From: Alphaproteobacteria bacterium
GTDB lineage: Bacteria > Pseudomonadota > Alphaproteobacteria > GCA-2731375
Direction: 5' to 3'
Assembly (NCBI GenBank): GCA_029937535.1
Contig: JAPYPT010000001.1
Coordinates: forward strand, 5,832 to 69,831
DNA length: 64,000 nt
Below the pieces are notes generated by a model. It saw nothing but the letters and a program-made list of their open reading frames with translations. It did not search any database and was not told the DNA's origin. This document shows positions 44,101 through 62,774 of the stretch, piece after piece. How positions within the stretch are numbered: position 1 is the first letter of the stretch; each line of letters begins with the position of its first letter. The position numbers and the translations under genes were made by a program.

Positions 44101-45000
44101 ATGACCGTATCTGACCTTCCCGGCTCTGGATCGCTTGAGGAACTGGGCGTCCAAAATTCCTGGACCTCTACCGCCTGGAGCCTGATACGCCGCCAACCCC
44201 TGGGCGCGGCCGGGCTGTTCATTGTTTTGGTAATGATCTTCATGGCCGTTTTCGCCGAGGTCATCACGCCTTTTGATCCGGAGGAAAACAACTTCGAATT
44301 CATGCTGACCCCGCCCGGCGCGGATTTCTGGCTGGGTACCGACCAGTTTGGCCGGGATCAGTTGACCCGCATTATTTTCGGCGCACGCACCGCCCTGTAC
44401 GTCGGTTTCACCGCCGCCTTTGTCGGCGCCTTCTCGGGCCTGGTCCTGGGCGTCGCCTCGGCCTATTTCGGCGGCTGGTTTGATCTGTTGTTCCAGCGGG
44501 TGATGGATGTCTTCATGGCCTTCCCGCTGATTATTCTGGCCCTGGCCGTGGTCTCCATCCTGGGCCCGAACATCAACAACGTGATCATCGCCATCACCAT
44601 ACCATTTATTCCTCAATGCGCCCGCGTGGTGCGCTCATCCGCCCTGGCGATCCGGGAAATTCCTTACGTGGATGCGGCCCGCGCACTTGGTTTCAGCCAC
44701 CGGCGGATAATTCTGCGCCACATGGCGCCCAACGTCATGGCGCCGTTTCTGATCATGCTGACGACATTCGTCGGCCAGGCCATTCTGCTGGAAGCCTCGC
44801 TCTCCTACCTTGGCCTTGGCGTACAAGAGCCGACCCCCGCCTGGGGCCTGATGCTGCAGGGCGGCGCGGAAGAATATGCCGAAAGCGCGCCCTGGGTGGC
44901 GATCTTCCCGGGCCTGGCAATTTCCCTCGCCGTGTTTGCCTTCAACATGTTCGGCGATGCGCTGCGCGACGTGCTCGACCCCAAATTGCGCTCACGCTGA
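44101..45000 (+). CDS. peptide ABC transporter permease (DppC-like)
   Basis: 299-aa membrane ORF with the BPD_transp_1 pattern. Confidence 0.75.
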   Translation: MTVSDLPGSGSLEELGVQNSWTSTAWSLIRRQPLGAAGLFIVLVMIFMAVFAEVITPFDPEENNFEFMLTPPGADFWLGTDQFGRDQLTRIIFGARTALYVGFTAAFVGAFSGLVLGVASAYFGGWFDLLFQRVMDVFMAFPLIILALAVVSILGPNINNVIIAITIPFIPQCARVVRSSALAIREIPYVDAARALGFSHRRIILRHMAPNVMAPFLIMLTTFVGQAILLEASLSYLGLGVQEPTPAWGLMLQGGAEEYAESAPWVAIFPGLAISLAVFAFNMFGDALRDVLDPKLRSR

Positions 45001-45016
45001 ATAGCGTCAAACAGAC

Positions 45017-45739
45017 ATGACTGAACGCACGATCCTGGGCATGTTGACGCCCTCATCGAACACCGTGCTGGAGCCGACCACCACCGCCATGCTGGACGGC
45101 CTGGACGGGGTCACGGCCCATTTCAGCCGCTTCAAGGTGACCGAAATAACCTTATCCGAACATGGCTTGGCGCAGTTCGATCATGGCAAATTCCTGGCCG
45201 CGGCCGAGCTTTTGGCGGATGCCAAGTGCCATGCCATCGCCTGGAACGGCACCTCCGCCGGCTGGCTGGGTTTTGCCAACGACGAGGCTTTGTGCGCCCG
45301 CATCATGAAAGGTACCGGCGCGCCGGCCACCACCTCGATCCTGGCCAACAATGACCTGTTCCGCCGCCATGGCGTGAAAAAGTTCGGCCTGGTCACGCCC
45401 TACACCGGCGACGTCCAGGCCCGCATCCTCGATAATTACGGCGCCGCCGGGTTCGACTGCATGGCGGAGCGGCATTTGGGTATCTCCGACAATTACTCAT
45501 TTTCGGAAATCAGCCAGGACCAGGTCGAGGCCATGTGCCGCGAGGTCGCGGCGGAGGGCGCGGAGGCCATCTCCATCATCTGCACCAACATGCGCGGCGC
45601 CGCCCTGGCGGCCAAACTGGAAGACGAATTGGGCATCACCATCTACGACAGCATTTCCGTCGTCATCCTGCGCGCCCTCGAACTGGCCGGCCTCGATCCC
45701 GCCCGCCTGCAAGGATGGGGCCGCATTTTCAACGCCTGA
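45017..45739 (+). CDS. Asp/Glu/hydantoin racemase superfamily protein (arylmalonate decarboxylase/maleate isomerase-like)
   Basis: 240 aa. Lies 16 nt downstream of dppC-like. Paralog of 1202..1984. Confidence 0.5.
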   Translation: MTERTILGMLTPSSNTVLEPTTTAMLDGLDGVTAHFSRFKVTEITLSEHGLAQFDHGKFLAAAELLADAKCHAIAWNGTSAGWLGFANDEALCARIMKGTGAPATTSILANNDLFRRHGVKKFGLVTPYTGDVQARILDNYGAAGFDCMAERHLGISDNYSFSEISQDQVEAMCREVAAEGAEAISIICTNMRGAALAAKLEDELGITIYDSISVVILRALELAGLDPARLQGWGRIFNA

Positions 45740-48677: not shown

Positions 48678-49670
48678 ATGGCCGTCAATGATTTTGCCTG
48701 CCATTTGGACGTTTTCGAGGGCATGGAGCCATTTTCCGGATTTGTGGAAAATGGCTTTCTGGTTGACTTCGTCGGCCAGCGCACGGATGCGACGTTCCGT
48801 TCCATCTGGGGTGTCGATCCCCATGCCACGGGTGGCCGTGAAATGGCGACCGCCATGCCGGCGCTGTCGGACGGCGAAGACTGGTTTGAATTCTATAACT
48901 GGGTGGCGGCGGCGAGAGAAGCGCGCGGATCTTATGTGATGATGACCCTGGGATCTTGTTATGGCGCCCAGGCGGTGGGCAGTTATCTTGCCCTCCAAGC
49001 CTTGAACCCCATGCCGGCAAAGCTGGTCGCCGTGGACGGCGTGCCGGAAAATATGGAGATGACCCGCAAGCAGTTTCGCGACAACGGCATCAACCCGAAC
49101 GACCATTGGATGATCGAGGCGGCCATGAGCGGCGATAACAAGCCGGTGCTGTTTCCCATCGGCGCGCCGGGCTCGGGCACGCAGAACTGCGTTTTGACCA
49201 ATAGCGGCGCCAACCGCATGGCGATTCTTGATCTGGCCAAAAAAGCCGGCGCCACGGAACGGCTGGCCCAAAGCCTGCTGATGCGCAACAGCACCGACCT
49301 GACCATCGATCTGGCGCCGGGCACGGAATATGATTTCTCGGGCGAGATTACCTTTGTCTCCGCCCTGACCTTGATGGATTTGCTGGCGCCCTTCGAACGG
49401 GTGGATTTCGTGGAAGCCGACCTGCAGCAATCGGAAAGCGTGGTCTTTCCGCCGGCGATGGATGTTCTGACCAAGAAAGTCCGCCGCGTTCTGTTGGGCA
49501 CGCACGGGCAAAGCACCCACGACCGAATGGAAAAATTGTTCCGCGATCGCGGCTGGGACATCGTTTTCAGTTACGCACCGGAGCAAACCTACGAAACACC
49601 CCATGCCACGTTCGAGATGAACGACGGCGTCATCACCGCCGTCAATCCGGCCGTGGCCTACCGCAGTTGA
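48678..49670 (+). CDS. hypothetical protein, tandem paralog A (FkbM-family methyltransferase-like)
   Basis: 330 aa. 'LVAVDGVPENMEMTRKQFRDNGI' and 'VDFVEADLQQSESVVF' resemble FkbM-family blocks (EPnpenfelL; idllKiDvEGaE). Low confidence. Confidence 0.35.
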   Translation: MAVNDFACHLDVFEGMEPFSGFVENGFLVDFVGQRTDATFRSIWGVDPHATGGREMATAMPALSDGEDWFEFYNWVAAAREARGSYVMMTLGSCYGAQAVGSYLALQALNPMPAKLVAVDGVPENMEMTRKQFRDNGINPNDHWMIEAAMSGDNKPVLFPIGAPGSGTQNCVLTNSGANRMAILDLAKKAGATERLAQSLLMRNSTDLTIDLAPGTEYDFSGEITFVSALTLMDLLAPFERVDFVEADLQQSESVVFPPAMDVLTKKVRRVLLGTHGQSTHDRMEKLFRDRGWDIVFSYAPEQTYETPHATFEMNDGVITAVNPAVAYRS

Positions 49671-49704: not shown

Positions 49705-50697
49705 ATGGCAGTCAATGACCTGACACCTTTTCTGGACACTTTCGATGGCATGGAGCCGTTTGCGGGCTATGTGGACAAGGGATTTTTTGTCGATTTCATC
49801 GGCCAGCGGACAGACGCCAACTTCAGGGTGATTTGGGGCGCCGAACCGGACAAAGCGGGCGATTGCCAGACCATGACCCGCCTGCCAAGCCTGTCCGATG
49901 GCGAAGGCTGGTTTGAAACCTTCAACTGGGTCGCGGCCGCCCGGGAAGCCCGCGGTTCCTATACCATGATGACCCTGGGTTCATGCTACGGCGGCCAGGC
50001 GGTCGGAAGCTATCTGACCCTGCGGGCCCTGAACCCCATGCCGGCCATGCTGGTGGCGGTCGACGGGGTGCCGGAAAACATGGAAATGACCCGCAAACAG
50101 TTTCGCAACAACGGCATCGATCCCAACGAACATTGGCTGATCGATGCAGCCATGAGCGCCAACAACGACCCCGTGCTCTTTCCCATTGGAGCGCCTGGAC
50201 TGGGCGCACAAAGTTGCACGCAGTCCAACAGCCGCGCGGCCCGCATGACGATCCTGGACATGGCCAAGCACAACGGCACCCTGGAACATCTGGCGCAAAG
50301 CCTGTTGCTGCGCAACAGCACCGGCGTGACCGTCAATTTGGAAGAAGGCACGGATTTCGAAGCCCCGGCCGAGATCTCCTTTGTCTCGGCCGTGACCTTG
50401 AAAGACCTGCTGACACCCTTTGCCAGGGTCGACTATGTGGAAGCGGATTTGCAGGAATCGGAAGGACTGGTGTTCCCGCCCGCCATGGATCTGCTCACCA
50501 AAAAGGTACGGCGGGTCCATTTGGGCACCCACAGCGACCTGACCCACGAAGTTTTGGAAGGACAATTCCGCGAGCGCGGCTGGGATATATTGTTCAGTTA
50601 CAAACCACGGCAAACCTATGAGACGCCCCACGCCACGTTCGAGATGAGCGACGGTGTCCTGACAGCCGTCAATCCGGCCATGGCCTACGCCAGTTGA
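49705..50697 (+). CDS. hypothetical protein, tandem paralog B (about 70% aa identity to A)
   Basis: Exactly 330 aa and co-linear with paralog A, with the same candidate motifs (VDYVEADLQESEGLVF). Confidence 0.35.
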   Translation: MAVNDLTPFLDTFDGMEPFAGYVDKGFFVDFIGQRTDANFRVIWGAEPDKAGDCQTMTRLPSLSDGEGWFETFNWVAAAREARGSYTMMTLGSCYGGQAVGSYLTLRALNPMPAMLVAVDGVPENMEMTRKQFRNNGIDPNEHWLIDAAMSANNDPVLFPIGAPGLGAQSCTQSNSRAARMTILDMAKHNGTLEHLAQSLLLRNSTGVTVNLEEGTDFEAPAEISFVSAVTLKDLLTPFARVDYVEADLQESEGLVFPPAMDLLTKKVRRVHLGTHSDLTHEVLEGQFRERGWDILFSYKPRQTYETPHATFEMSDGVLTAVNPAMAYAS

Positions 50698-50735
50698 ACA
50701 CAGCGGCGGCCGCATAGGCGCCCAATAGGACGACG

Positions 50736-51455
50736 TCAGCGTATTAAAAAATCCAGAATCCAGGTCCGGACCGCTGCCTCGTTGGTGTCACGGGCGAGGC
50801 TATGGAGAGCCCTGTCCGCGACATCCCGGCCGATCACCTCACGCCGGATTTCATAGAGATCGGCGGCGAAGTCCTTGGTCATCTCGGGATGATTTTGGAT
50901 GGAGAGCACATTTGCGCCGATGGTCATCACGCCGATGGGGCAGAAATCACTGCCGCCCAGAACCGTCGCGCCAGGTGGGGGCGCCATCACCTGATCCTGG
51001 TGGGAGGCGAGCAGATCCAGTTGCCGGACGGGCGGCATGATACCGTCGGCTTGATCCATTAAAGCATGGCGGTGCACGCCGACGCCCCAGCCGTGGGCCT
51101 TTTCAACCCTGCCGCCAAAGGCCTGGCCGATCAATTGATGGCCGAAACAGATCCCGACCACGGGCCGGGTTTCAGACGCCGCGCGGGCAAACGCCTCCAG
51201 CTGGGCGATCCAGTCATCGCCGTCATAGACGCCGGCCGCGCTGCCGGTGATCAGCCAGCCGTCGCAATCATCGCCCGCATCCGGGAACTCACCGTCATAG
51301 CAACGATAGGGGCGCAGGATGGGCCCGTCGCCGCCGGGCGATAGGAAGCGTTGGAAAGATTGTGTGAAGGTAGTTAAATGAGCGTGAAAGGTCTCCGCCA
51401 CCGCGCCGCCTTCCAGAACACCGATGGTCTTGCTGTCGGCGGGCGCCGGGGTCAT
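50736..51455 (-). CDS. class I glutamine amidotransferase-like protein
   Basis: GICFGHQ nucleophile-elbow motif plus a downstream His. Overlaps the upstream enoyl-CoA hydratase stop by 4 nt. Confidence 0.6.
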   Translation of the reverse strand: MTPAPADSKTIGVLEGGAVAETFHAHLTTFTQSFQRFLSPGGDGPILRPYRCYDGEFPDAGDDCDGWLITGSAAGVYDGDDWIAQLEAFARAASETRPVVGICFGHQLIGQAFGGRVEKAHGWGVGVHRHALMDQADGIMPPVRQLDLLASHQDQVMAPPPGATVLGGSDFCPIGVMTIGANVLSIQNHPEMTKDFAADLYEIRREVIGRDVADRALHSLARDTNEAAVRTWILDFLIR

Positions 51456-52372
51456 TCGGGGTCGATCAGGTTGCCTTCATCGTCGCGGATTTCCGGGCCG
51501 TTGACCCGCGCCCGGCCGTCGCCGAAATTGGCGTCCCGGCCATCGAGGGCGGCCTTCAGCCCGTGTTCCCTGGCAACTTGCCGGAACGAACGGGTGCCAA
51601 GCGCGAGATGGGCGCGGGCATCGTTTTCCGCCGCCATGCGCTGCAGGGTCCGCGCACCCATCAACTCCAGACCCATATTGACGATACGCTTGTTGGCGGT
51701 CAGCAAATCGGGATCGATCATGGCCATGCGGTCGGCCAGCCCCTCAACCTCGGCCTCGAGAGCATCAAGGGGCACCGCTTTCATAACCAGGCCAATCTGC
51801 GCCGCCTCCGCCCCCGTGACCGTATCGCCGGTCAGAACCAGGCGTTTGGCCCATTGCGGGCCGCAATGGTAGACCCACATCTGGTTCGGCAACGACCCTA
51901 GATCGCGGGCGGGCGGAAAGCCGATCACCGCATCCTCCGCCGCGATGACCATGTCGCACAACAAGGCGATATCCGTGCCACCGGCCAGGCAATGGCCATG
52001 CACCTGGGCAAGCACGGGTTTATGCATATCGAACAGCACCATGCGCAGACGCTGGCTGTATTCCAGGCGCCAGATATCGTCATCAATGGTCGGATCGGCA
52101 TAGATACCGCCCTCGCGGTAGGTCCGCCCCGGCCGGCCCCCCGCAGGCGGGTTGTTCAGACCCGGCGTCAGGTCGTAGCCGGCGGAGAAGGCCTTGCCGG
52201 CGCCGCGCAGAATGATGCTGTGCACATCCTTGTCGTTGTCGGCCTCCCACAGGGCGGCATTCAGCTCCTCCAAAAGCGGTATGGAGAGGGCATTGCGCTT
52301 GGCCGGCCGGTTCAAGGTGATGCGGGCGCGGCCATCAACGGCCTCGTAGATAATATGCTCGGGGTCTTTCAT
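51452..52372 (-). CDS. enoyl-CoA hydratase/isomerase family protein
   Basis: 306 aa, crotonase-fold 'ILRGAGKAFSAGYDL'. Confidence 0.7.
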   Translation of the reverse strand: MKDPEHIIYEAVDGRARITLNRPAKRNALSIPLLEELNAALWEADNDKDVHSIILRGAGKAFSAGYDLTPGLNNPPAGGRPGRTYREGGIYADPTIDDDIWRLEYSQRLRMVLFDMHKPVLAQVHGHCLAGGTDIALLCDMVIAAEDAVIGFPPARDLGSLPNQMWVYHCGPQWAKRLVLTGDTVTGAEAAQIGLVMKAVPLDALEAEVEGLADRMAMIDPDLLTANKRIVNMGLELMGARTLQRMAAENDARAHLALGTRSFRQVAREHGLKAALDGRDANFGDGRARVNGPEIRDDEGNLIDPE

Positions 52373-52432
52373 GGGTCTTTCTTACATAAAATTTTTCGCA
52401 TGATTTTTATTAAAGTTTGGTCGTGGCTCTGG

Positions 52433-52500
52433 ATGCCCGGATCAAGTCCGGGCATGACGAAGCGGCCCTTTCGTCATTGCCGGGCTTGACCCGGCAATCC
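52433..52500. repeat. pair of REP-like hairpins in opposite orientation (atgcccggatcaagtccgggcat; gtcattgccgggcttgacccggcaatcc)
   Basis: Read directly. The second hairpin is near-identical to 25725-25753. Confidence 0.5.
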
Positions 52501-52531
52501 ATCGCGCAGCTTGGTACCGCACGGTCGAAAC

Positions 52532-53005
52532 CTAGGCCTGGCCCCGGCGTCTAACCGGGCGCATGACCTTCAACAACCAGAATATGACGCAGAAAACACC
52601 CGTCAGAATGACCAGGGCGACCACCGCCGCCAAGCGTGCCCCGAAGGCGCCATCCAGGGTATAGCCGGGCCCAAGCAAATAAACGCAGAGGATCTGCACC
52701 GCCTGCAAGGTTGCCCCGGCGCTGAACAGAATAGCGATAAAAGTGGAGCCGCGCAGGGAGGTCAAGACCATGCTTTCGACGCTGCGCTCCCTCACGATAT
52801 GGGTGTGATAGGCGCGCCAGTGATAACCGCAAAAGCCGGCGATGCCGACAATGACCACGGCCCAGAGAATTGAGTTTTCATAGCTCAAGCCATTCAGGAT
52901 CAGATTGAACAGATCCTCGAACGGTTGATAGAAATACAAAAATATCAGAACGACGATATAGATTATGAACCCCACCAAGGTCCAAAACCATTGCCAACCA
53001 CTCAT
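52532..53005 (-). CDS. hypothetical membrane protein
   Basis: 157 aa with about 4 predicted TM helices. No recognisable family. Confidence 0.35.
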   Translation of the reverse strand: MSGWQWFWTLVGFIIYIVVLIFLYFYQPFEDLFNLILNGLSYENSILWAVVIVGIAGFCGYHWRAYHTHIVRERSVESMVLTSLRGSTFIAILFSAGATLQAVQILCVYLLGPGYTLDGAFGARLAAVVALVILTGVFCVIFWLLKVMRPVRRRGQA

Positions 53006-53070
53006 ATGCCGTCCCCTTCGACCTTCATTGTTGCCGCTATTTTAACCCCGTCTACGCGGTGGCGAAAGGC

Positions 53071-53886
53071 CTACTGTGGCGATTTAAAGCCATTCCCGAT
53101 GATCTGCCCGAAGATAACCATTTCCGGACTGGTACGCCGGTAGGTATCAAGGGCCGCGAGCACGGCCGGGCGGTCATCAAATACCGGAACATAGCCACCC
53201 TGGCAGGCCGGTAATGCGGCGAATAAATCCGTCACTGCCGCGTCGATCCCCCGCAGCAAGGCCGCCCGGGCCGTTGCCATTTCCGGTGCCTGGGCCATCG
53301 GCGCCAGGGCTTCGTCAAGATGAGACAAAAGAGCCGGCCAACGAGCCAGGATCCGATACAGGCCCGGCACGAACGGCGTGCCATCCACATCCGTGCCCAG
53401 GCGCAGCAGCGCCCCTCGGGTGCCGTCGTCAGCCGTATCAACGTCGATCATTCCTGGCAACACGGGCAAGGCGGCGGGCGGTGTCCAATCATCCGCCGGC
53501 CATCCGGGACCGCTGGGCTGTTGATCCTGCAACAGGCAGCGCAACAAGCCGGCAAACATTAGATTGACCGGCGCCACCCGGACAAAACCGGCGCAAACAT
53601 CACGAATCGTCTGAACATCACCGGGGTCGAGACCGAGATCCGCCGCCGCCATTGGCGTCAGTTCGGGCAGATCCAGATCAGCCGCCACGCGCCACCCGGC
53701 GGTCTGCGCAGCGCCGGACTGAAAGGCAGGGGCCAGCGCCGACCAGGACCATTCCAGCCAGCCCGGCCGCGTCGCCAGATGACGTTGCAGGGAAGAAACA
53801 TAGGGCACGGCCCAGAGCCGGCGGATTTCACCATAGATCCCGGCAATTGTCCCCGTGGCCGCATCCTCGGGCAGTTCCGCCAGCAT
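53071..53886 (-). CDS. DehI-family (halocarboxylic-acid-dehalogenase-I-like) protein
   Basis: The N-terminal block 'AATGTIAGIYGEIRRLWAVPYVSSLQRHLATRPGWLEWSWSALAP' resembles the conserved DehI-family N-terminus. Start is translationally coupled (TAATG) to the cyclase stop. Confidence 0.4.
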   Translation of the reverse strand: MLAELPEDAATGTIAGIYGEIRRLWAVPYVSSLQRHLATRPGWLEWSWSALAPAFQSGAAQTAGWRVAADLDLPELTPMAAADLGLDPGDVQTIRDVCAGFVRVAPVNLMFAGLLRCLLQDQQPSGPGWPADDWTPPAALPVLPGMIDVDTADDGTRGALLRLGTDVDGTPFVPGLYRILARWPALLSHLDEALAPMAQAPEMATARAALLRGIDAAVTDLFAALPACQGGYVPVFDDRPAVLAALDTYRRTSPEMVIFGQIIGNGFKSPQ

Positions 53887-55662
53887 TTACCCCTCCGGCA
53901 TCCCGGCCCGGCGCAGACCCTCGGCAAAACGTTTGGCGTCGACTTCAAAGGCAAACGGCACAGCCTGTACGCATGCCTTAACGGTCATGCCCGGCGCCAT
54001 ACGGTCAAAATTCTCGTAGGCGGCGCGGGCCGCATCAAGATCACCCAGCATTCCCAGAACAGCAGCCAAGAATCGATGCCCGGTCGGAAAATTTGGGTTT
54101 TCATGTAACGCCTTTTCCGCCCACATGCGGGCTTCATCATACCGTTCATCGTTAAAATGCGGAATGCCGGCCACAACGAGATACATCGGCAGCAAGGGGT
54201 CCTTTGGGCTGAGCTGTATGGCCTTTTGCAAAAGCTCGAGACCTTCATCGTAGTTATGCGTGTAAACTAACACGACCCCCAAAGTACCCAAGGCTTGAGA
54301 GTAGTTCGGATTTAGGCTGACAGCAGTGCGCAGGCGTTGCGTGGAGTCTTCATGCCGCTTTAGCACCAACAGGCCGGCCCCCAACTGGGCATGGGCAAAT
54401 TCATCCTCCCGGTCCAGGTTGACGGCCCTTTGGGCCATTTCCAAAGTCATGGTACGCGAATCCGTTGGTGGCCGCCGCCAGTTATATAAGGCATCGAGTA
54501 GATAGGTCGCTGATAGCGCGGCGTGAATTCTTGCATTTTCGGGATCGACATCCAGCGCCCCGGCAAGCAGATTTTCAGCTTTGCCGTTATCCTTTTCAGT
54601 GAATTTTGAGCCATGCCAATTGGCGCGCGCGATCTTTTCCCAAATGCCTAGCTCCGGAACGCTCTTGCGCCGAACGCGCGCCACTTCCGCTGCCGCCAGT
54701 TCCGGTCCCATGGCCATGGCGACACGTTCTGTAATCTCGTCCTGAACGGCGAAGATATCATCCAGCTCGCGGTCATATCGTTCGGCCCAGATATGATTGG
54801 AGGTGGCCGCATCGATCAACTGGGCCGTGATCCGCACCCGGTTGCCGGCCCGGCGCACGCTGCCTTCGATGACGTACTGAACACCTAGTTCGCCGGCCAC
54901 TTGCTTGATGTCGACCGCTTGGCCCTTATAGGTGAAGGAGGAGTTCCGCGCGATGACGAAGAACTGGTGGAAACGTGACAGGGCGGTGATGATGTCCTCG
55001 GCCATGCCGTCGGAGAAATACTCCTGCTCGGGATCGCCCGACATGTTGTCAAACGGGAGAACAGCAAGGGAAGGTTTGTCAGACAACGGCTGCGTTTTGC
55101 CGCCAAACGATTCAGACGCGGCCACGTTGGATGACTGGGACTGCAACCAGCGCCAAACCCGCACGGGTTGGTCAATGTTTTTCAGCGATTGTTCGCCTGT
55201 ATCCTCGAATTTGGCCTCGAGACGCGCACGAACATCTTCATGCACCCGGCCTGAAACGGCCACACCGCCCGGCGCGGCGATTTCCTGCAATCTCGCGGCA
55301 AGGTTTACGCCGTCACCCAGGATGTCGTCGCCCTCAATGATCACATCACCAAGATTGACACCAATGCGGAAGATGATCCGCTGGTCCAGATCGACGTTTT
55401 CGTTTCGCGCGGCCATACCCCGCTGAACCTTGATGGCGCATTCCGTGGCCTCGACAACTGAGGGAAATTCCAACAACAAACCGTCGCCCATGGTCTTGAC
55501 GATGCGGCCGCCATGTTCCGCGATCAATCCATCAACCAATTCCCCCCGGTGGGCGCGCAGGTCTGCCAGGGTGCCCACCTCATCCACGCCCATAAGGCGG
55601 GAATAGCCGACCACATCGGCGGATACGATCGCCGCCAGCCTACGTTGTGTTCGCTCCGTCAT
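53887..55662 (-). CDS. adenylate/guanylate cyclase (class III CHD) with TolB-like and TPR-repeat regions
   Basis: N-terminal '[18 protein letters not shown]...GDGLLLEF...[28 protein letters not shown]' cyclase domain, central TolB-like domain, C-terminal TPR repeats. Confidence 0.7.
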
Positions 55663-55693
55663 GGGGTAGGTTCACCGACGACTGCCGGGCACA

Positions 55694-56935
55694 TCACGGC
55701 TCATCCGTCCCATTCCTCTTCCGCGCCTCTTCCAGAGCGCTTTCCCAGGCGGCTTCGGTGGCGATCTCCCGCGTCCAGGGGCGCATGACGGAGGCGGCCT
55801 GGGCATCGCGTAGGTACCGCTCCAGGGGGAATTGTTTCAGCAGGGCGCGCCCGCCGCAGACCCGGATGGCTTCCTGCGCCACCTCGACCACGGTGCGCTG
55901 CACCATGACATGGGCGGCACGGGCCCGTTGTCGGATTTCATGGGTTGGCGGCAATTTAGCCTCGGACACGGAGCGGAGATAGAGCGCCCGCGCCGCCTCG
56001 ACCTTGAACATCATGTCGGCGATGGAGTTACCCATCACCGGCCCGATGGGTCCTTTCGACGGCGCGCCGTCGGCCCCGCCGGTCAGGTAGTCGAGGGTAT
56101 AGGCATAGGCCGCCTGCATGACGCCGAGGAAGGTCGCGGAAAACAGCAACGGCCCATGGGCGGAGTTCAAATAGAGCCCGCCAAAGACGCCGGGGGGTAG
56201 GATTTCACCGTCGTCGGGGACAAAGACGTCCTTCAATACCATGTTGCGGCTGACCGTGGCCCGCATGCCGATGCTGTCCCAATCGCCCGAAAAGGTCACG
56301 CCGTCCGCATCGCGGGGGACCTTGAGATAGAGCGTGCGTTCAATAAAGGCGCCATCGACGTTGAGGATCGCGGGTGTCGCGAAATAGGGCGCCGCGTCCG
56401 AGAGCGAGACAAAGAACTTCCACCCGTTCAGGCGATAGCCGCCGTCCACCTTATCGGCGATGGTGCCGAAGCGGCGGCCGCCGACGGTGAAAATCTTGTC
56501 CGTCTCGCCTTCCTCGACCGGCTCGCTGTGGGGCTGTCCGTAGTAGACGCCCTTTTCGACAACCTCGCGGAAATTGATCGCCCGTAACTCCCCATGGCGA
56601 GCGCGTTTCTCCTCGCTCATCTCGTGGGCATCGGCCATCTCGCCCATCATCAGCATGGTCAGGCAATGCATGTTGTAGGTCAGCGCGGTCGAGGCGTTGC
56701 CTTGCGCGAGTTGTTCGGAAACCAGGCAGTAGGTTTCCAGATCGGCGCCAAGCCCGCCGTACTCCTCGGGCACGCAGAGCCCGAGGAAACCCGCATCACG
56801 CAGATCGTCGTAATCCTCGAACGGAAAGCGGGCGGCGCGGTCATACTCGGCGGCGCGCGGTGCGAAACAATCCATGGCCAGTTCGCGCGCCTTATGGATC
56901 AATTCCACTTGGCGCGGTGTCGGCTGCATGTCCAT
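55694..56935 (-). CDS. acyl-CoA dehydrogenase family protein
   Basis: 413 aa with the three-domain ACAD pattern and a C-terminal catalytic-base region. Confidence 0.75.
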   Translation of the reverse strand: MDMQPTPRQVELIHKARELAMDCFAPRAAEYDRAARFPFEDYDDLRDAGFLGLCVPEEYGGLGADLETYCLVSEQLAQGNASTALTYNMHCLTMLMMGEMADAHEMSEEKRARHGELRAINFREVVEKGVYYGQPHSEPVEEGETDKIFTVGGRRFGTIADKVDGGYRLNGWKFFVSLSDAAPYFATPAILNVDGAFIERTLYLKVPRDADGVTFSGDWDSIGMRATVSRNMVLKDVFVPDDGEILPPGVFGGLYLNSAHGPLLFSATFLGVMQAAYAYTLDYLTGGADGAPSKGPIGPVMGNSIADMMFKVEAARALYLRSVSEAKLPPTHEIRQRARAAHVMVQRTVVEVAQEAIRVCGGRALLKQFPLERYLRDAQAASVMRPWTREIATEAAWESALEEARKRNGTDEP

Positions 56936-56985
56936 CCAGCTACTCTCCCTGGAACACTAATTGAGTGTCGTCCCGCAACGTCGGC

Positions 56986-57129
56986 CTAATGCTGATGGGC
57001 CGGCATCCGGCGCCAACGGCGGAACAAGGCCAATAGGTTGCAATAGGCCAGGATACGGCCCAACTCCTGTTGCCGCCGGTCTCTGGCGGCGTGGACTTCC
57101 GGCTGAAACTCGTAAATCGCGTTACACAT
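56986..57129 (-). CDS. hypothetical 47-aa protein (not in the ORF track)
   Basis: ATG at 57129 with GGGAGG 7 nt upstream. Translation MCNAIYEFQPEVHAARDRRQQELGRILAYCNLLALFRRWRRMPAHQH*. Confidence 0.2.
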   Translation of the reverse strand: MCNAIYEFQPEVHAARDRRQQELGRILAYCNLLALFRRWRRMPAHQH

Positions 57130-57152
57130 GATCAACCTCCCTTATTTGCCTC

Positions 57153-58571
57153 TTAAACCGTCAATGGCGGCCGGCGCAAATGCCACTCCGTGGCCTGTTC
57201 GAAGGCATCCGCCACTTGCAGCAACTGCGGCTCCTCGAACCAAGCGCCCATGAGCTGCAAACCGATGGGCAGGCCGTCCTCCGTGAAGCCGCAGGGCAGG
57301 GTTATGGCGGGTTGCCCCGTGAAACAGGCCAGGCGCGTCAACTGCCCCAACACCCGCCAGCCAATAACCTCCTTTTCGCCCACCACAATGGTGCCGGTCT
57401 CGATGGGCACGGGCGGGATCACCGTCGTCGGCATGGCCAGAATGGGGGTTTGCGCCAATACGCCGGCCATTTCCTCCCGCACCCTGGTCTGGGTTTGCCG
57501 GGAACGGATATAATCAATGGCCGTCAGATCCTTGCCCAGGCCCAGACGCTCCCTGACATCGGGCGACAGATCATCGGCATTATCGCGCAAATGACCTTCA
57601 TGGACCGACAGGGACTCCGCCATGGCCATGGCGTTCCAGCCCTGCACGGCATCGCGGTTAAAGGGCAACGATACGTCCTCCACCACGGCGCCCAGTTCCT
57701 CTAGCATGGCGAGGGCGGCCTGAACCGCTTGCTCGATCTCCGGGTGCAGGCGTTCAAAATAGAATTCCCGGGGCACGCCGATGCGCAGGCCGTCCAACGG
57801 CTGGCCCAACAGGGCGGTGTAATCGCCAACCCTGGCCTGGGCGGTGGAGGGATCGTCAGGGTCCGCGCCCGCGATGGCGCCCAGCACCAGGGCGGCATCA
57901 CGCACCGTGCGCGTCAAGGGCCCGCCGTGATCCAGGCTTTCGCACAAGGTATAGATGCCGGCGCGGGAGGCCAGGCCGTAGGTTTGTTTCAAGCCGACCA
58001 CGCCGCACATGGCGCCGGGAATGCGGATCGAGCCGCCCGTGTCACTACCCAAGGTGGCCATGGCCAGGGCCGCTGAGGTAGCGCAGCCGGAACCGGAGGA
58101 GGAGCCGCCCGAGACATAATCGGGGTTCCACGGGTTACGCGCCGTGCCGACGTTGGGATTGATGCCCGTGGGACCAAAGGCGAATTCGTGCAGGTTCAAC
58201 ATGCCCAGCATGATGGCGCCCGCATCGCGCAGGCGGGCCACGGAGGTAGCATCGGAATTGGCCACGCCTTCGGACAGGATTTTCGAACCGCAGGTGCGTT
58301 CCATGCCGGCGACCTGGAACAGATCCTTAACCGCCATGGGAATGCCGTGCAGGGGGCCGCGGTAGGCGCCTGCCGCGATCTCCCGCTCCGCCTCTTTCGC
58401 GGCGGCCAGCGCGGCATCGGGGTAGAGCGATATATAGGCGTTCAAATCAGGGTTCAGCGCCTCGATCCGGGCCAACTGGCTCTCCATTACCTCGACGGGC
58501 GAAACCTCGCGCCCCGCGATCAAGGGTGCGAGGGCGGCGATATCCATCAATGCCAGGTCGGGATTGCTCAT
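57153..58571 (-). CDS. amidase (amidase-signature family; GatA-like)
   Basis: ATG at 58571 (MSNPDLALMDIAALAPLIAG...). GGSSSGSG signature and a K…S…S catalytic triad context. The start overlaps the upstream membrane-protein stop (ATGA). Confidence 0.75.
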   Translation of the reverse strand: MSNPDLALMDIAALAPLIAGREVSPVEVMESQLARIEALNPDLNAYISLYPDAALAAAKEAEREIAAGAYRGPLHGIPMAVKDLFQVAGMERTCGSKILSEGVANSDATSVARLRDAGAIMLGMLNLHEFAFGPTGINPNVGTARNPWNPDYVSGGSSSGSGCATSAALAMATLGSDTGGSIRIPGAMCGVVGLKQTYGLASRAGIYTLCESLDHGGPLTRTVRDAALVLGAIAGADPDDPSTAQARVGDYTALLGQPLDGLRIGVPREFYFERLHPEIEQAVQAALAMLEELGAVVEDVSLPFNRDAVQGWNAMAMAESLSVHEGHLRDNADDLSPDVRERLGLGKDLTAIDYIRSRQTQTRVREEMAGVLAQTPILAMPTTVIPPVPIETGTIVVGEKEVIGWRVLGQLTRLACFTGQPAITLPCGFTEDGLPIGLQLMGAWFEEPQLLQVADAFEQATEWHLRRPPLTV

Positions 58572-59641
58572 ATATCTGTCTCCGGTACCGCGATAATCAG
58601 TAAAATGCCGTAGATGGCCACAAAGAGTGCATCCTTGATGGCGCCCAGGCCTTGCTTGTTCTCGCCGCCCTGAAGCAACAGCACGATAATCTCCAGAACA
58701 AAGGCGATAATGGCCAAAAAGAAGAACGGCCAGATAGAGCTCCACCAGGTCAACTCCGCCGGCATCTGCACGCCCTGAATGGCGCGCCAGATCAACAGCA
58801 GGATCGGCAATGCGACCAGGTAAAGTTGGGCCGCCAGAAAGCGGAAGCGGGTCAGGGTCCGGTCCAGAATCCAAAAGATCAGGAAAAACAGCGCCACATA
58901 GAGCATATCCCAGAACATCACGGCATAGGCCTCGCCGCCGCCATATTGCCGCAAATTAAGGAAGCCCATGATCAGCAGGAAGGTCACGGCGTCGCACAAC
59001 AGCCATTCACGGAAGTTCTCCGCCGGGCTCTTCACATTCCAGCCCCGCGCCGCCTTGTCGAACAACAACACCAGGGCAACCGCCAGGGCGGCGGGATAGA
59101 TCAGGTGCTGGACCACGAAATACTGATCCGCCAAGGGCAGATAGATCCAGTTCAACAACAAAAACGCGACGAACAGCGCCAACAGCCCCAACAGGCGCAC
59201 GCCGACGGAGGTCGGTTGCGATGCCGGCCCCGTTTCCTCGACAGCCGCGGCCGCCCGCGGTTCCAGGCTCACATCGGCGGGTGGGGCGGCCGTACCTTGG
59301 CGTGCCGTATGAACGACCAGGTAGATCACGAAGCCGACCAAACCCAGACCGGCGACCACGAGCATGATGACGAAAAAGGCGATGGCGCGGCTATCGGCCC
59401 GCCAATCCGCCGCCTGGCCCAGCAGGCCGTCCGTGGAGAACTGCCAAACGGCGAGGATAATGACGACCAGCAAAAGCAGCGCGGCCAAAAGGTATTGATA
59501 CCAACGCCCCGTGAGACTACCGGCAAATGATCCCCGCGATTGGGCCACCGCCCGCCCGATCAGGAAAATCAAAAACGCCAAAACGCCGACAATGGCGATG
59601 GCGGCCATGACTTCTAAAAATACAACTGAACGACTATCCAC
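58568..59641 (-). CDS. hypothetical polytopic membrane protein
   Basis: 357 aa with about 9 predicted TM helices. No recognised family. Translationally coupled to the amidase. Confidence 0.45.
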   Translation of the reverse strand: MDSRSVVFLEVMAAIAIVGVLAFLIFLIGRAVAQSRGSFAGSLTGRWYQYLLAALLLLVVIILAVWQFSTDGLLGQAADWRADSRAIAFFVIMLVVAGLGLVGFVIYLVVHTARQGTAAPPADVSLEPRAAAAVEETGPASQPTSVGVRLLGLLALFVAFLLLNWIYLPLADQYFVVQHLIYPAALAVALVLLFDKAARGWNVKSPAENFREWLLCDAVTFLLIMGFLNLRQYGGGEAYAVMFWDMLYVALFFLIFWILDRTLTRFRFLAAQLYLVALPILLLIWRAIQGVQMPAELTWWSSIWPFFFLAIIAFVLEIIVLLLQGGENKQGLGAIKDALFVAIYGILLIIAVPETDI

Positions 59642-59678
59642 CTTACGCCCCGTGCCCCCTCACCTTAAATAACGTTAA

Positions 59679-60314
59679 CTAAGTTTCGTTTCGCCCACGC
59701 ACGGTCTCAAGATAGTCCAAGACATCATCCAAGGTCACCACATCGGCGTAGCGCCGGCCCACGTCCAACAGATTGGCCTGATGGGGCCCTTCCTCTACAT
59801 CGCCAACGCAATCTTCCGGAACGGCGACACGGAAGCCATAGGAAAAGGCATCAATGACGGATGCCCGAATACAGCCGGAGGTATTGCAGCCCACCACAAT
59901 CACCGTGTCCACCCGCTCCTTGATAAAAAACTGCGTGATCGCGGTCTGGAAAAAAATTGACGGACCGGTCTTGCAAAAGACCACATCATAATCCTTGTCA
60001 TAAATGCGCGGTTCCAATTCCGTGCAGGGATGGCCGTGGTGAAATTCCTCCAACACCGTTGGGATTTTCCAATAAGGTGCATCACGACGGGAGGAATAGG
60101 CAGTGTAGCACGTCGCCACCGGCACATTGGCCGCGCGGGCCACCTCCAGCATGCGGGCGGTATTTTCCACCGCGCGTTCCACCAGGGGCCGGCCGCCGAG
60201 GGTGTATTGCGGGTCGGTGAAGCCGGTCTGGAAATCCACCACCGCGATGCCCGGACGCTCGCCAAAACCGATTTTGTGGGCGCCAAAGCCGATGTCTTCG
60301 TAGTTGTCCGTCAT
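59679..60314 (-). CDS. isochorismatase-family cysteine hydrolase (N-carbamoylsarcosine-amidase / RutB / biuret-hydrolase-like)
   Basis: D…K…C triad context (IAVVDFQ; VVFCKT; VIVVGCNTSGCIRAS). Confidence 0.65.
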   Translation of the reverse strand: MTDNYEDIGFGAHKIGFGERPGIAVVDFQTGFTDPQYTLGGRPLVERAVENTARMLEVARAANVPVATCYTAYSSRRDAPYWKIPTVLEEFHHGHPCTELEPRIYDKDYDVVFCKTGPSIFFQTAITQFFIKERVDTVIVVGCNTSGCIRASVIDAFSYGFRVAVPEDCVGDVEEGPHQANLLDVGRRYADVVTLDDVLDYLETVRGRNET

Positions 60315-60327
60315 GGCACAAGCTTTC

Positions 60328-61065
60328 CTAGCCTTGTAATATCACGCTAAAGCGATCCTTGAAGGCCTGGCGCAGCTGCTCAAAGCGAACACCAACTCGG
60401 ATCACCGAGTAATCTCGAAAATCTATGATAGTCGAGGAACGGCCCTGATGGTTAGCATATTGCGACAGGCCGTAATCAAAGGCGATATCGGCGGCCTCGC
60501 GCACCGCCGCATCAATATCGCCCAGGCGGTATTTGCTGCCCGTCAGCGACAAATTGGCCGAAGAGCCGAATACCGGCATTTGCCTGGCCCAGGCCTGGCG
60601 GGCAATCTCGTCATGCATTTGTCCGGCGTTCAATAGCATATCCAGGGTGCCGGCCTTGGACGAGGATTGCAGCACAAAGGGATCGACCTTGGCCAAAAAC
60701 GGATGGTCCTCGCGAAACGGCGCCACCACCGAGAACGGCAGCCCGACCGCCGTCACCATCTCCTCCACCATTGTATGCTGTTCGTCCGCCAACTTGTGCA
60801 GCGCCGCCGATATTGTGTAATTCGCGAACATGCCGCTGGGCTTTTCGTAAGACCGCTGCTTGGCATCAAAAATACGGCGAATGCCCTGGGGTGTCGCCGC
60901 CAAAATCGCATAGGCCACATCCAGGGGCGCAAGGGCGACCCCGCCGTCCGCCAGCGCGTCCAGCAAGGCCGCGACATCGGCCGACAGTTGCGCGGACGCA
61001 ACAGGGTCTTTTGTGCGCCGCTCATCAGGCGATGCCGGTTCAAGCGGCGTTTCAGCCTCGATCAT
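60328..61065 (-). CDS. YrdC/YciO/Sua5-domain protein (L-threonylcarbamoyladenylate-synthase family)
   Basis: The blocks 'VALAPLDVAYAILAAT' and 'FGSSANLSLTGSKY' match the YrdC fold. ATG at 61065 (MIEAETPL...). Confidence 0.55.
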   Translation of the reverse strand: MIEAETPLEPASPDERRTKDPVASAQLSADVAALLDALADGGVALAPLDVAYAILAATPQGIRRIFDAKQRSYEKPSGMFANYTISAALHKLADEQHTMVEEMVTAVGLPFSVVAPFREDHPFLAKVDPFVLQSSSKAGTLDMLLNAGQMHDEIARQAWARQMPVFGSSANLSLTGSKYRLGDIDAAVREAADIAFDYGLSQYANHQGRSSTIIDFRDYSVIRVGVRFEQLRQAFKDRFSVILQG

Positions 61066-61066
61066 A

Positions 61067-61708
61067 TCACTTCGTGCCGTACAGGCGGTCGCCCGCATCG
61101 CCCAGGCCCGGCAGGATATAACCGATATCGCTCAATTGCCGGTCGATGGCGGCGGTTAGGATCGGCACATCCGGGTGGGCGGTGGAAAATGCCTCGATCC
61201 CTTCAGGCGCGGCCACCAGGGCAACGAATTTCATGCGCCGGGCGCCAGCTTCCTTCAGACGGGTCACGGCGGCGACAGCGGAATTGCCCGTGGCCAGCAT
61301 GGGATCCACCACGATGACCTGTCGCTCGCCAATGGAAGGAGGCAATTTGAGGTAGTACTCCACCGCCTCCAAGGTATCATGGTCCCGGTACATGCCGATG
61401 TGGCCCACCCGCGCCGAGGGGATCAAATCCAGCATTCCCTCCAGCAAACCATTGCCCGCGCGCAAAATGGAAACCAGGCACAATTTTTTGCCATCCAGAA
61501 CCGGGGCTTCCATGGCCTCCAATGGTGTTTCGATTCGGATCTGTTTCAAGGCCAGATCGCGGGTCGCCTCGAAGGCCAGCAGCAGGGAAATTTCGCCCAG
61601 CAACTGGCGGAATTCCGCCGTCGATGTTTCGGTTCGCCGCAGCAAGGTCAATTTATGCTGGATCAACGGATGATCCGCCACTGTCACATTTGGTGCCGCC
61701 ATGGTCAC
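61067..61708 (-). CDS. upp: uracil phosphoribosyltransferase
   Basis: 213 aa with the PRPP-binding '[14 protein letters not shown]' motif and typical Upp length. Confidence 0.85.
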
Positions 61709-61880
61709 AGCCCTCCGATTTTGTTGTCTGTCAGTTTAACCGGAGGGCCCGAAATGAACATAGCCCCTTCACGGTAATTAATGCCAATCCGTGCAAGCCA
61801 GTATTAATTTTGATATTTTACGGCGGTTCCGTAGAGTTACGGCAATTTCACTCACGCAGTCGTTTTTTCGGAAGAACACA

Positions 61881-62774
61881 ATGCCAGAAACAACAGGGCG
61901 GCCGGAGACCCCGAACGCCAGGCCGGATTTGTTCCGCGGACCGGTGTTCAGGATAGATGCGACCCTGAAGACGAGCGTCGTCGTGCTGCGGAAAAACTTC
62001 CTATGGTTCACAATGTTGGCAATATTGTTTTCCGCCCCCATGGCATTGAATGAGGTCCATAACCTTCTCAAGACGTTGAAGGGTGACACCGCCTATTCCG
62101 GCTTTACCGTCAGTCTGTACCGCGGTCTGTTTGATTGGTTATTCAAATACTTTCTGATTGGCATATTGGCCTATCGGATATTCATGGATCTCGAGGGCCG
62201 GGCCTCGAACATAGGCGAAACCCTGAAGCATGCCCTGGCCCGCGCCTTCCCTCTGTTGTGCCTTGGCGTCGCCTACGGCGGTATTGTCCTGGCGCCGGCT
62301 CTGGTCATTGTTTTTTATCCCGAACTCTATGGGGCTTTCTTCATCCTGATCATTCCAAGCGCCTACATCGCCGTCATCTTCTTCGCCGCCATGCCGGTCG
62401 CAATTATTGAAAAGGCCGGGCTGGTGGAATGTTTCGGCAGAAGTGCCGCGCTGACCAAGGGGTTTCGCTGGAAAATCTCCGGCCTGATCATCCTTATCAT
62501 TCTTCTGCACACGGTTTGGACTGTTTTGGTCAAACTGCTGTTTGAGTTCGTTGTCATTGATTTTGACGCCGTCTATTGGGCCACGTTCGCCGCCATCTTT
62601 GCCGTGAATACAGTCATCACGGCCTATTTCGCCGTTGTCGTGACCGTTGCAGGAGGCCGCGACCACCGGCGAAGTTGGCGATGGCCGTATTTTTGTCCTG
62701 GATATTTTTCGCAGTATTCAAATCCGATCGGGCAAGGTCGATGCCGAGCATGCCGCGCTATGAAGCGCGGCTGA
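61881..62774 (+). CDS. hypothetical membrane protein
   Basis: ATG at 61881 (MPETTGRPETPNAR...) with about 6 TM helices. No family recognised. Confidence 0.4.
   Translation: MPETTGRPETPNARPDLFRGPVFRIDATLKTSVVVLRKNFLWFTMLAILFSAPMALNEVHNLLKTLKGDTAYSGFTVSLYRGLFDWLFKYFLIGILAYRIFMDLEGRASNIGETLKHALARAFPLLCLGVAYGGIVLAPALVIVFYPELYGAFFILIIPSAYIAVIFFAAMPVAIIEKAGLVECFGRSAALTKGFRWKISGLIILIILLHTVWTVLVKLLFEFVVIDFDAVYWATFAAIFAVNTVITAYFAVVVTVAGGRDHRRSWRWPYFCPGYFSQYSNPIGQGRCRACRAMKRG

Follow-up and report, generated by a model that had tools for sequence, protein, structure and literature searches.

A YrdC-like protein distinct from TsaC is paired with an isochorismatase-like hydrolase in a candidate ureide- or amide-processing locus of Alphaproteobacteria

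A gene for a YrdC-like protein and a gene for an isochorismatase-like cysteine hydrolase lie side by side in the 64-kb stretch of alphaproteobacterial DNA analysed here (the window), and together they form a conserved unit that recurs in distant relatives. A second conserved unit comprises a polytopic membrane protein (MEMB) and a 157-aa membrane protein (mem157), often joined by a translationally coupled amidase, and upp is a lineage-specific addition to the cluster. The most interesting part is the YrdC-like protein, a predicted ATP-dependent adenylate-forming enzyme distinct from TsaC. We propose, with the probabilities evenly balanced, that the locus represents a pared-down, marine-lineage form of an island that is widespread in Alphaproteobacteria and that takes up and hydrolyses or salvages a cyclic ureide or amide.

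Results

The cluster is encoded on the minus strand and comprises upp (61067..61708), the YrdC-like gene (60328..61065), the isochorismatase-like gene (59679..60314), the gene for MEMB (58568..59641) and a gene for an amidase-signature amidase (57153..58571). In line with the sequence-only reading, which had described five tightly packed, co-directional genes, all five ORFs were recovered with intergenic gaps of 1, 13, 37 and -4 nt; the -4 nt marks the overlap of the MEMB stop with the amidase start (ATGA). However, the limits given there, 57153-61708, are too narrow: the run continues past the amidase with seven further minus-strand ORFs down to 50736, separated by gaps of at most 159 nt. These are a doubtful 47-aa ORF (56986..57129), which is preceded by a GGGAGG ribosome-binding site and called in NCBI records; a lineage-specific insert (53887..56935) of two genes with Pfam matches, acyl-CoA-dehydrogenase-like (55694-56935) and adenylate-cyclase/TPR (53887-55662); a gene for a DehI-like protein (cluster c29; 53071..53886) with a weak PF10778 match of 26 bits; the gene for mem157 (52532..53005), which has no Pfam match and is the conserved partner of MEMB; and an enoyl-CoA hydratase family gene (51452-52372; Pfam ECH_1, 139 bits) that overlaps by 4 nt with a class-I glutamine-amidotransferase-like gene (50736-51455; Pfam GATase, 52 bits).

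The upp product, a uracil phosphoribosyltransferase, matches Pfam UPRTase with 253 bits and exceeds both equivalog cut-offs (NF001097, 281.3 versus 114 bits; TIGR01091, 269.7 versus 208.35 bits). We place its start at GTG 61708, and NCBI records place it at ATG 61702.

The YrdC-like protein matches PF01300 with 35 bits and reaches 34.7 bits with the TsaC/Sua5 equivalog TIGR00057, the cut-off of which is 123.2 bits; it is no TsaC equivalog. The sequence-only reading had considered the objection that the gene is the sole tsaC ortholog. The catalytic tetrad of TsaC/Sua5 is KxR/SxN (PMC10321239). The corresponding residues K69, R71, S169 and N171 are invariant among 36 family sequences, and in alignments they correspond to the KxR and SAN of MTH1692 and TsaC2. 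In contrast, the PTETVYG motif of TsaC/Sua5 is replaced by P47-L48-D49-V50-A51-Y52-A53 (PLDVAYA), of which L48, D49, A51 and Y52 are invariant in the same 36 sequences. T33 of Pa-Sua5, the threonine-binding Thr of PTETVYG, has no counterpart in the YrdC-like protein.

The AF2 model of the YrdC-like protein (pLDDT 94) has its best fold matches in Sua5, TsaC2 and smu.1377c (TM 0.66-0.69). A profile of the family yielded only 701 matches at E<=1e-3 among 1.84 billion representative proteins, and the large TsaC/Sua5 family was not retrieved. Moreover, members of the family lie in tandem in regulated catabolic operons and on a secondary replicon of Variovorax; these paralogues and contexts speak against a role as the sole, essential TsaC. 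Judged by sequence, the protein belongs to a small, distinct and sharply separated branch of PF01300, and TsaC was rejected as an assignment on the basis of the missed cut-off, the replaced threonine motif and the rarity of the family.

The isochorismatase-like hydrolase matches PF00857 with 104.9 bits (gathering cut-off 27), and D27, K115 and C148 align with the catalytic triad of the family, that is, with the VVD, K and TSGC motifs of 26st and 4l07. Its closest solved relative is the N-carbamoylsarcosine amidohydrolase 26st (9e-40), further ones being 4l07 (9e-35), 3ot4/3uao (4e-32) and 1nba (2e-27), with maleamate amidases almost as close as N-carbamoylsarcosine amidases. These similarities place it in the N-carbamoylsarcosine/maleamate amidase branch. 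Among the families named before, N-carbamoylsarcosine amidase remains a candidate, whereas BiuH (28.7 bits, cut-off 370) and RutB (20.8 bits, cut-off 378) were rejected; biuret hydrolase structures match with E values of 1e-4 to 6e-7.

The amidase matches PF01425 with 386.7 bits and contains the motifs AVK82DL, GGS157SSGS and DTGGS181IR, including the Lys/cis-Ser/Ser residues K82, S157 and S181, the spacing of which matches GatA. Its best PDB match is GatA 4wj3 (4e-90). It scores below every NCBIfam cut-off, including those of the AtzE (334.8/461 and 322.4/425.75 bits), allophanate hydrolase (254.3/487 and 224.3/511 bits) and GatA (318.9/481 bits) models. The protein is GatA/AtzE-like and belongs to no named equivalog.

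MEMB matches neither Pfam nor NCBIfam, and its fold resembles none that is known. Hydropathy analysis and the AF2 model predict 10 helices instead of the nine reported before, and the GTG start is backed by an N-terminus, MDxRSxxFLEVM, conserved in 38 homologues. The suggestion that MEMB is the transporter finds no support, as no match to known transporter families was detected by sequence or by the fold of the AF2 model, and relatives have an ABC importer alongside.

The gene neighbourhoods of 63 species-level genome loci and 80 metagenome loci were compared, all carriers in the genome scan being MAGs. In a marine, Rhodospirillaceae-like clade, the YrdC-like gene is immediately preceded by upp in 19/19 genome loci and in 10/10 readable metagenome loci. 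Since this junction is kept while the gene upstream of upp varies in at least eight ways, the arrangement goes beyond chance. In distant loci, upp adjacency was not found (0/44 genome and 0/52 metagenome loci); upp is also joined to the cluster in one more distant lineage (L075, L093), with an ICL/PEP-mutase gene between upp and the YrdC-like gene. The YrdC-like gene is directly followed by the isochorismatase in 36 of the 63 genome loci and in 38 of 60 readable metagenome loci, and this adjacency persists in distant loci (29/44 and 35/49, respectively). The identities of the two proteins co-vary (52-94%), and synteny holds down to 51% identity. Within the marine clade, the isochorismatase is absent from 12 of the 19 loci, and in the closest relative (L007) it is reduced to a deleted remnant. 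The sequence-only reading was right in treating these genes as a unit and not as a chance neighbourhood, as seen from the constant upp-yrdC junction and the distantly kept pair, but conservation does not extend to the order of all five genes, given the missing upp in distant loci and the missing isochorismatase in close relatives.

These data also bear on the notion that a housekeeping upp, the tsaC of the cell and a gatA-like amidase merely happen to lie together. The full equivalog status of upp, GatA as the best solved relative of the amidase and the intact KxR/SxN tetrad would agree with it. Nevertheless, the TsaC and GatA models are missed (34.7 versus 123 and 319 versus 481 bits), the threonine motif is lost, the YrdC-like family is not universal, its tandem paralogues occur in catabolic operons and on a secondary replicon, and synteny is kept at low identity. 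Coincidence is largely refuted and hardly credible.

The second unit is likewise traceable. The amidase comes after MEMB in 17/19 marine loci; one soil locus has this order too, with an identical 4-nt overlap. In both marine and soil loci, mem157 adjoins MEMB or lies close to it. A further arrangement of the MEMB family is isochorismatase - HyuA - HyuB - MEMB - (amidase) - 159-aa protein - amidohydrolase - SBP - permeases. Downstream, the DehI-like, mem157, enoyl-CoA hydratase and class-I GATase genes keep their synteny with the cluster in relatives: the DehI-like gene comes after the amidase in 11/19 marine loci, and the hydratase and GATase-like genes are syntenic in 13-14/19. The 47-aa ORF was found in the nearest relative L007 only (89%), and the insert that separates the amidase from the DehI-like gene is confined to the window's own contigs and L007.

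In fuller versions of the island, both units are accompanied by a true dihydropyrimidinase, by ATP-dependent hydantoinase A/B, by an enzyme of the ICL/PEP-mutase family and by an ABC importer that is PotD-like. Among 46 distant genome loci, HyuA occurs in 23, HyuB in 21, PrpD in 18, ICL in 18, CoA-transferase in 16 and dihydropyrimidinase in 13. The units are bridged in L075, L092 and L093, which have the order (upp) - ICL - YrdC - ISOCH - ISOCH2 - MEMB - mem157 - dihydropyrimidinase - ABC. The carbamoyl, ureide or cyclic-amide theme proposed earlier is reasonable because relatives adjoin a bona fide dihydropyrimidinase (TIGR02033 in an NCBIfam label check, 599 bits, cut-off 393), hydantoinase A/B and further amidases. 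The 64-kb window itself contains no dihydropyrimidinase, HyuA/B or matching ABC importer.

With upp at hand, a pyrimidine-specific pathway could be envisaged, in which dihydropyrimidinase opens the ring, the isochorismatase or the amidase replaces beta-ureidopropionase, and Upp salvages uracil at a branch point. The upp junction of the marine clade, its recurrence in L075 and L093 and the island dihydropyrimidinase speak for it, and RutB, an isochorismatase-family ureidoacrylate amidohydrolase, offers a precedent. We nonetheless hold this reading to be rather unlikely, as a dihydropyrimidine dehydrogenase was not seen, the 44 + 52 distant loci that retain the YrdC-hydrolase pair lack upp, similarity to RutB is negligible, the window is devoid of dihydropyrimidinase, and the ICL, PrpD, HyuAB and CoA modules do not suit beta-alanine as end product.

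The order HyuA-HyuB-YrdC-ISOCH recurs in nine loci (L037, L039, L045, L054, L055, L100, L104, L117 and L121), reminiscent of the established creatinine route via N-methylhydantoin and N-carbamoylsarcosine (PMC4417704). Here, HyuA/B would make an N-carbamoyl amino acid, the isochorismatase would act as an N-carbamoylsarcosine-type amidase, in keeping with its best solved relative, and the YrdC-like protein would be accessory. Such a pathway is quite unlikely: HyuA/B is not found nearby in the window and the marine clade, no sarcosine-oxidising genes were seen, the island HyuA/B proteins are caprolactamase-like and score far below named cut-offs, and maleamate amidases are nearly as close to the hydrolase.

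The genes that accompany the module in soil loci (PrpD, CoA-transferase, Ich-like and HMG-CoA-lyase) point to the chemistry of organic acids and not of ureides. The YrdC-like enzyme would then adenylate the carboxylate of a branched di-/tricarboxylic acid, and the amide hydrolases would only feed the pathway. Many loci have PrpD or ICL adjacent to YrdC, modules for itaconate-like CoA-transferase, Ich and HMG-CoA-lyase are close by, and a Variovorax locus reads ICL - YrdC - YrdC - CoA ligase - LeuCD-like. However, the window's cluster contains no PrpD, ICL, CoA-transferase, Ich or HMG-CoA-lyase gene, and known YrdC-fold chemistry acts on carbamates, not on plain carboxylates, which leaves this reading unlikely.

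Discussion

According to the island reading that we prefer, the compound would be of the dihydropyrimidine, hydantoin or imide type. Ring opening, encoded elsewhere in the genome or lost, would yield N-carbamoyl or amide intermediates, which the cysteine hydrolase and/or the amidase would break down, releasing NH3 (+CO2). The YrdC-like enzyme keeps the ATP/PPi-binding tetrad without the threonine site of TsaC, and the intermediate that it adenylates would be a carbamate or carboxylate distinct from N-carboxy-threonine; the most economical candidate would be the N-carboxy product of its partner hydrolase. In the marine clade, upp may have been recruited, tying the pathway to uracil salvage. Against the proposal stands the window's lack of the ring-opening and import genes of the island, as does the company of the module in soil loci. 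Much of the marine clade can do without the isochorismatase, which weakens any obligate coupling of the YrdC-like protein and the hydrolase. Likewise, a hydrolytic pathway has no obvious need for ATP on a spontaneously decarboxylating carbamate.

A bolder version, which we regard as decidedly improbable, holds that the YrdC-like protein and the cysteine hydrolase form a new two-enzyme carbamoyl machine, and that MEMB, mem157 and the amidase form a new membrane module. The hydrolase would make or consume a thiocarbamate or N-carboxy intermediate, which the YrdC-like enzyme would interconvert with carbamoyl-adenylate. If true, the machine would couple the cleavage or formation of a ureido group to ATP; with dihydropyrimidinase and Upp, the marine clade could run a non-canonical route that links N-carbamoyl compounds with uracil and UMP, and the second unit would represent a membrane-associated module for amide processing or transport.

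Several known systems resemble parts of the locus. TsaC/Sua5 has the fold, the ATP-binding tetrad and the C-terminal STIxD/RxG motifs in common with the YrdC-like protein at 16-20% identity, but is universal and translation-related, whereas the YrdC-like protein is rare and occurs in a catabolic context. TsaC2 adenylates N-carboxy-threonine, as the titles of its structures state. YrdC-like domains convert carbamate and ATP to carbamoyl-AMP, and HypF passes the carbamoyl group on to a cysteine thiol (PMC6022934). The domains of HypF and TobZ/NodU carbamoyltransferases adenylate carbamate with the same fold. In the present case, the YrdC-like protein has a cysteine hydrolase as partner, a Kae1-like transfer domain or gene is lacking, and fold similarity (TM ~0.55) is lower than to Sua5. 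The YciO subgroup of PF01300 adjoins rnm (RNase AM) and has a conserved basic surface patch (PMC12506659), whereas none of the 63 + 80 loci has an rnm-type neighbour; the neighbours are hydrolases and catabolic genes.

The hydrolase resembles N-carbamoylsarcosine amidase and maleamate amidohydrolase (NicF/Ami), its best solved relatives, with which the D-K-C triad aligns; it reaches no equivalog model, so its substrate class is predicted by sequence proximity, and the partner genes of the creatinine and nicotinate pathways are absent from the window. AtzE/AtzG and GatCAB have the amidase-signature fold with Ser-cisSer-Lys motifs, and AtzE and GatA are the best-scoring named families for the amidase. 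In contrast to them, the amidase lacks a small conserved GatC/AtzG-like partner, the 47-aa ORF not being conserved, and is translationally coupled to a polytopic membrane protein.

Finally, hydantoin-utilisation (hyu) and reductive pyrimidine (Pyd) clusters resemble the relatives of the locus, in which dihydropyrimidinase, hydantoinase A/B, carbamoyl/amide hydrolases and an importer occur together. In the island, decarbamoylation would fall to isochorismatase-like or amidase-signature enzymes instead of the usual enzyme types. A dihydropyrimidine dehydrogenase was not seen, and the island adds the YrdC-like enzyme, the ICL/PEP-mutase enzyme and two unannotated membrane proteins.

Layout of the Cluster and Its Flanks

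Reading the window confirmed five ORFs on the minus strand, as the sequence-only reading had described: upp (61067–61708), a YrdC-like gene (60328–61065), an isochorismatase-like cysteine hydrolase gene (59679–60314), the gene of a polytopic membrane protein (MEMB, 58568–59641) and an amidase gene (57153–58571). The first is a full upp equivalog (NF001097, 281 bits, cut-off 114; TIGR01091, 270 bits, cut-off 208) and the second matches PF01300 weakly (35 bits), while the third and fifth match PF00857 (105 bits) and PF01425 (387 bits), respectively. The intergenic distances of 1, 13, 37 and -4 nt bear out the reported tight spacing; however, the five-gene operon does not hold as an evolutionary unit, but joins two conserved modules with a clade-specific upp and an isochorismatase gene undergoing loss.

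Moreover, the co-directional minus-strand run extends beyond the amidase gene with gaps of at most 159 nt, comprising in order a 47-aa ORF, an acyl-CoA-dehydrogenase-like gene, an adenylate-cyclase/TPR gene, a DehI-like gene, the gene of a 157-aa membrane protein (mem157, 52532–53005), an enoyl-CoA hydratase gene and a class-I GATase-like gene. Contigs from several NCBI metagenome assemblies, GCA_029936015.1 among them, match the window. A promoter and terminator scan of positions 50000–62500 yielded counts no higher than the shuffled expectation.

NCBI records annotate the 47-aa ORF (56986–57129, minus strand), which starts 23 nt past the amidase stop behind a strong GGGAGG ribosome-binding site. 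Since its conservation extends no further than the nearest relative, locus L007 (89%), an AtzG/GatC-like amidase partner was rejected. Likewise, the insert between the amidase and DehI-like genes (53887–56935, minus strand), made up of the acyl-CoA-dehydrogenase-like gene and the adenylate-cyclase/TolB_N/TPR gene, is restricted to the lineage of the window and L007; no nucleotide separates the cyclase gene stop from the start that follows. Upstream of upp lies a divergent multi-helix membrane protein gene (61791–62774, plus strand) with a weak GPDPase_memb match (17 bits), which is conserved in L007 (71%) and in a further related locus, L033 (38%). Just outside the cluster, two tandem 330-aa ORFs (48678–49670 and 49705–50697, plus strand) with 70% mutual identity and no Pfam match form an unannotated duplicated family.

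Conservation of the Gene Neighbourhood

A scan in which each species was represented by a single genome, with the YrdC-like protein as query, gave 65 loci; all come from MAGs and most from Alphaproteobacteria. Window proteins were placed on these loci by tblastn and all flanking ORFs were clustered. In a marine Rhodospirillaceae-like clade (n = 19, YrdC identity 77–93%), upp lies directly upstream of the YrdC-like gene at 19/19 loci, and this junction is invariant although at least 8 different arrangements occur upstream of upp. The amidase gene is likewise present at all 19 loci and MEMB at 18, the two being adjacent at 17, whereas the isochorismatase gene is found at just 7/19. In the closest relative, L007 (93% YrdC identity), it is reduced to its 5′- and 3′-ends at positions 5809–6150 with about 500 nt deleted internally, and this remnant indicates that the isochorismatase gene was lost recently.

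Among the 44 distant genome loci (YrdC identity 51–73%), upp adjacency was not observed, and the isochorismatase gene follows immediately after the YrdC-like gene at 29. An independent sample of 80 metagenome loci agrees with the genome loci: at a YrdC identity of at least 77%, upp is adjacent in 10/10 cases and the isochorismatase gene comes next in 3/11, and below 77% the corresponding counts are 0/52 and 35/49.

A Larger Island in Relatives

The distant YrdC–hydrolase pairs recur together with further genes. Across 46 genome loci these encode hydantoinase A (HyuA, 23) and hydantoinase B (HyuB, 21), MmgE/PrpD and an ICL/PEP-mutase-family enzyme (18 each), a family-III CoA-transferase (16) and a dihydropyrimidinase (13), in addition to a PotD-like ABC importer, GntR regulators, TRAP transporters and HMG-CoA-lyase-like and Ich-like genes. 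The island dihydropyrimidinase exceeds its NCBIfam equivalog cut-off (599 versus 393); HyuA and HyuB are caprolactamase-like and fall under theirs.

Three related loci (L075, L093 and L092) bridge both contexts in the order (upp), ICL/PEP-mutase, YrdC, isochorismatase, second isochorismatase, MEMB, mem157, dihydropyrimidinase and ABC importer; L075 and L093, whose YrdC identity is 66%, again show the link to upp. The order retained in the marine clade is MEMB, amidase, (DehI-like), mem157, enoyl-CoA hydratase, GATase, (4Fe-4S protein), dihydropyrimidinase and substrate-binding protein. Within the 64 kb of the window, dihydropyrimidinase, HyuA/HyuB and an island-type ABC importer are absent. 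Elsewhere in the window, at 41363–45739 on the plus strand, lies an Opp/Dpp-type ABC system with an Asp/Glu/hydantoin-racemase/arylmalonate-decarboxylase-like gene (45017–45739) after it, and a JGI soil contig carries a similar Amdase-like gene near the MEMB island.

Hydrolases and Membrane Protein

The isochorismatase-like protein is nearest to N-carbamoylsarcosine amidohydrolases (26st, 9e-40; 1nba, 2e-27) and maleamate amidases (4l07, 9e-35; 3ot4/3uao, 4e-32), with an aligned Asp-Lys-Cys triad (D27, K115, C148); it is remote from the biuret hydrolase and RutB families that had been considered. The amidase carries the signature motif residues K82, S157 and S181. It scores under every named NCBIfam cut-off; its best solved relative is GatA.

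For MEMB, hydropathy and an AF2 model indicate 10 helices instead of the nine counted before, and the N-terminus conserved among 38 homologues supports a longer GTG start. Pfam and NCBIfam searches with MEMB gave no match, nor did Pfam for any of the 38 members; Foldseek against the PDB was likewise negative, and fold searches overall produced no convincing match. The family comprises 474 homologues, none annotated, with the context isochorismatase, HyuA, HyuB, MEMB, [amidase], 159-aa membrane protein, amidohydrolase (opposite strand), substrate-binding protein and two permeases, in which the 4-nt MEMB–amidase overlap recurs. Since many charged and Trp residues but no His or Cys are invariant, a transporter or channel would fit better than a redox protein.

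The YrdC-like Protein

With 34.7 bits versus a cut-off of 123.2, the YrdC-like gene does not qualify as a TsaC equivalog. An approximate E. coli TsaC sequence used as tblastn query did not match it at all; the sole weak match, inside an ABC ATPase gene, is spurious. In a family alignment of 36 members from Alpha- and Gammaproteobacteria and Acidobacteriota (mean column identity 62%), K69-x-R71 and S169-x-N171, the ATP-binding tetrad of TsaC/Sua5 (PMC10321239), are invariant in 36/36. When the profile is aligned with T. maritima TsaC2, the KxR, SAN and STIxD motifs align, and PTETVYG, which contains the threonine-binding Thr, is replaced by PLDVAYA. Among 1.84 billion representatives, the family profile retrieves no more than 701 proteins at E ≤ 1e-3 (67 at E ≤ 1e-30), and the branch is therefore small and sharply set apart from the universal TsaC/Sua5 family.

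Some catabolic operons under LysR or GntR control contain tandem YrdC-like paralogues. The cultured Aquibium sp. A9E412 carries two YrdC-like genes in a row, followed by TRAP and isochorismatase genes, and complete carriers include OZ252290.1 and CBDDPY010000002.1. At locus L074, on a secondary replicon of Variovorax paradoxus VAI-C (CP063167.1, 878100–879594), two such paralogues with 34–38% identity to the window protein have an ICL/PEP-mutase gene and TctC binding proteins on one side and a CoA ligase plus LeuCD-like dehydratase genes on the other; this cultured carrier would allow work on the family. A PLSDB plasmid search returned one distant match only, on this Variovorax chromid, which is not an orthologue context. 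Among longer family representatives we observed one fusion to a TENA/THI-4/PqqC/haem-oxygenase-like domain (P0347, 446 aa) and what seem to be read-throughs out of neighbouring PrpD and HMGL genes, and no fusion to isochorismatase.

Discussion

Taken together, the best-supported model is that the window locus would be a reduced derivative of a cyclic-ureide or cyclic-amide catabolic or salvage island, and the carbamoyl, ureide or amide-processing theme proposed earlier is reasonable. The YrdC-like enzyme would adenylate, at the expense of ATP, a carbamate or carboxylate intermediate not derived from threonine; this is plausibly the N-carboxy compound that the partner hydrolase produces. What we propose for the substrate, for which way the YrdC reaction runs and for what the membrane pair does is inference.

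The YrdC-like branch has kept its ATP site, altered its substrate site and become tied to amide/ureide hydrolases in catabolic islands, and thus offers a concrete starting point for testing a new YrdC-fold activity. As the island is present in soil MAGs as well as in marine Alphaproteobacteria of deep waters and oxygen-minimum zones, and holds two membrane-protein families without any annotation, it may represent an unrecognised way of recycling the organic nitrogen of cyclic ureides or amides. Oxygen-minimum-zone and deep-ocean sites that contributed MAGs are Saanich Inlet, ETNP and the Black Sea. The window in itself gives a more modest result, namely a reduced island derivative with signs of ongoing gene loss. 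In the literature on YrdC with isochorismatase or hydantoinase, on carbamoylsarcosine and N-methylhydantoin clusters and on YrdC with catabolic amidohydrolases, we found no description of the module.

PF01300 (TsaC/Sua5/YciO/YrdC) is a classic example of a family whose paralogues are wrongly annotated as tRNA t6A enzymes, and the records of this branch examined here routinely bear the label 'tRNA A37 threonylcarbamoyladenosine synthetase subunit TsaC/SUA5/YrdC'. The AF2 model of the YrdC-like protein (pLDDT 94) folds like the catalytic domains of Sua5 and TsaC2 and like the uncharacterised S. mutans smu.1377c (TM 0.66–0.69, identity 16–20%), whereas HypF YrdC-like domains fit less well. In known YrdC-fold chemistry carbamates are adenylated (PMC6022934), and the titles of TsaC2 structures name N-carboxy-L-threonine.
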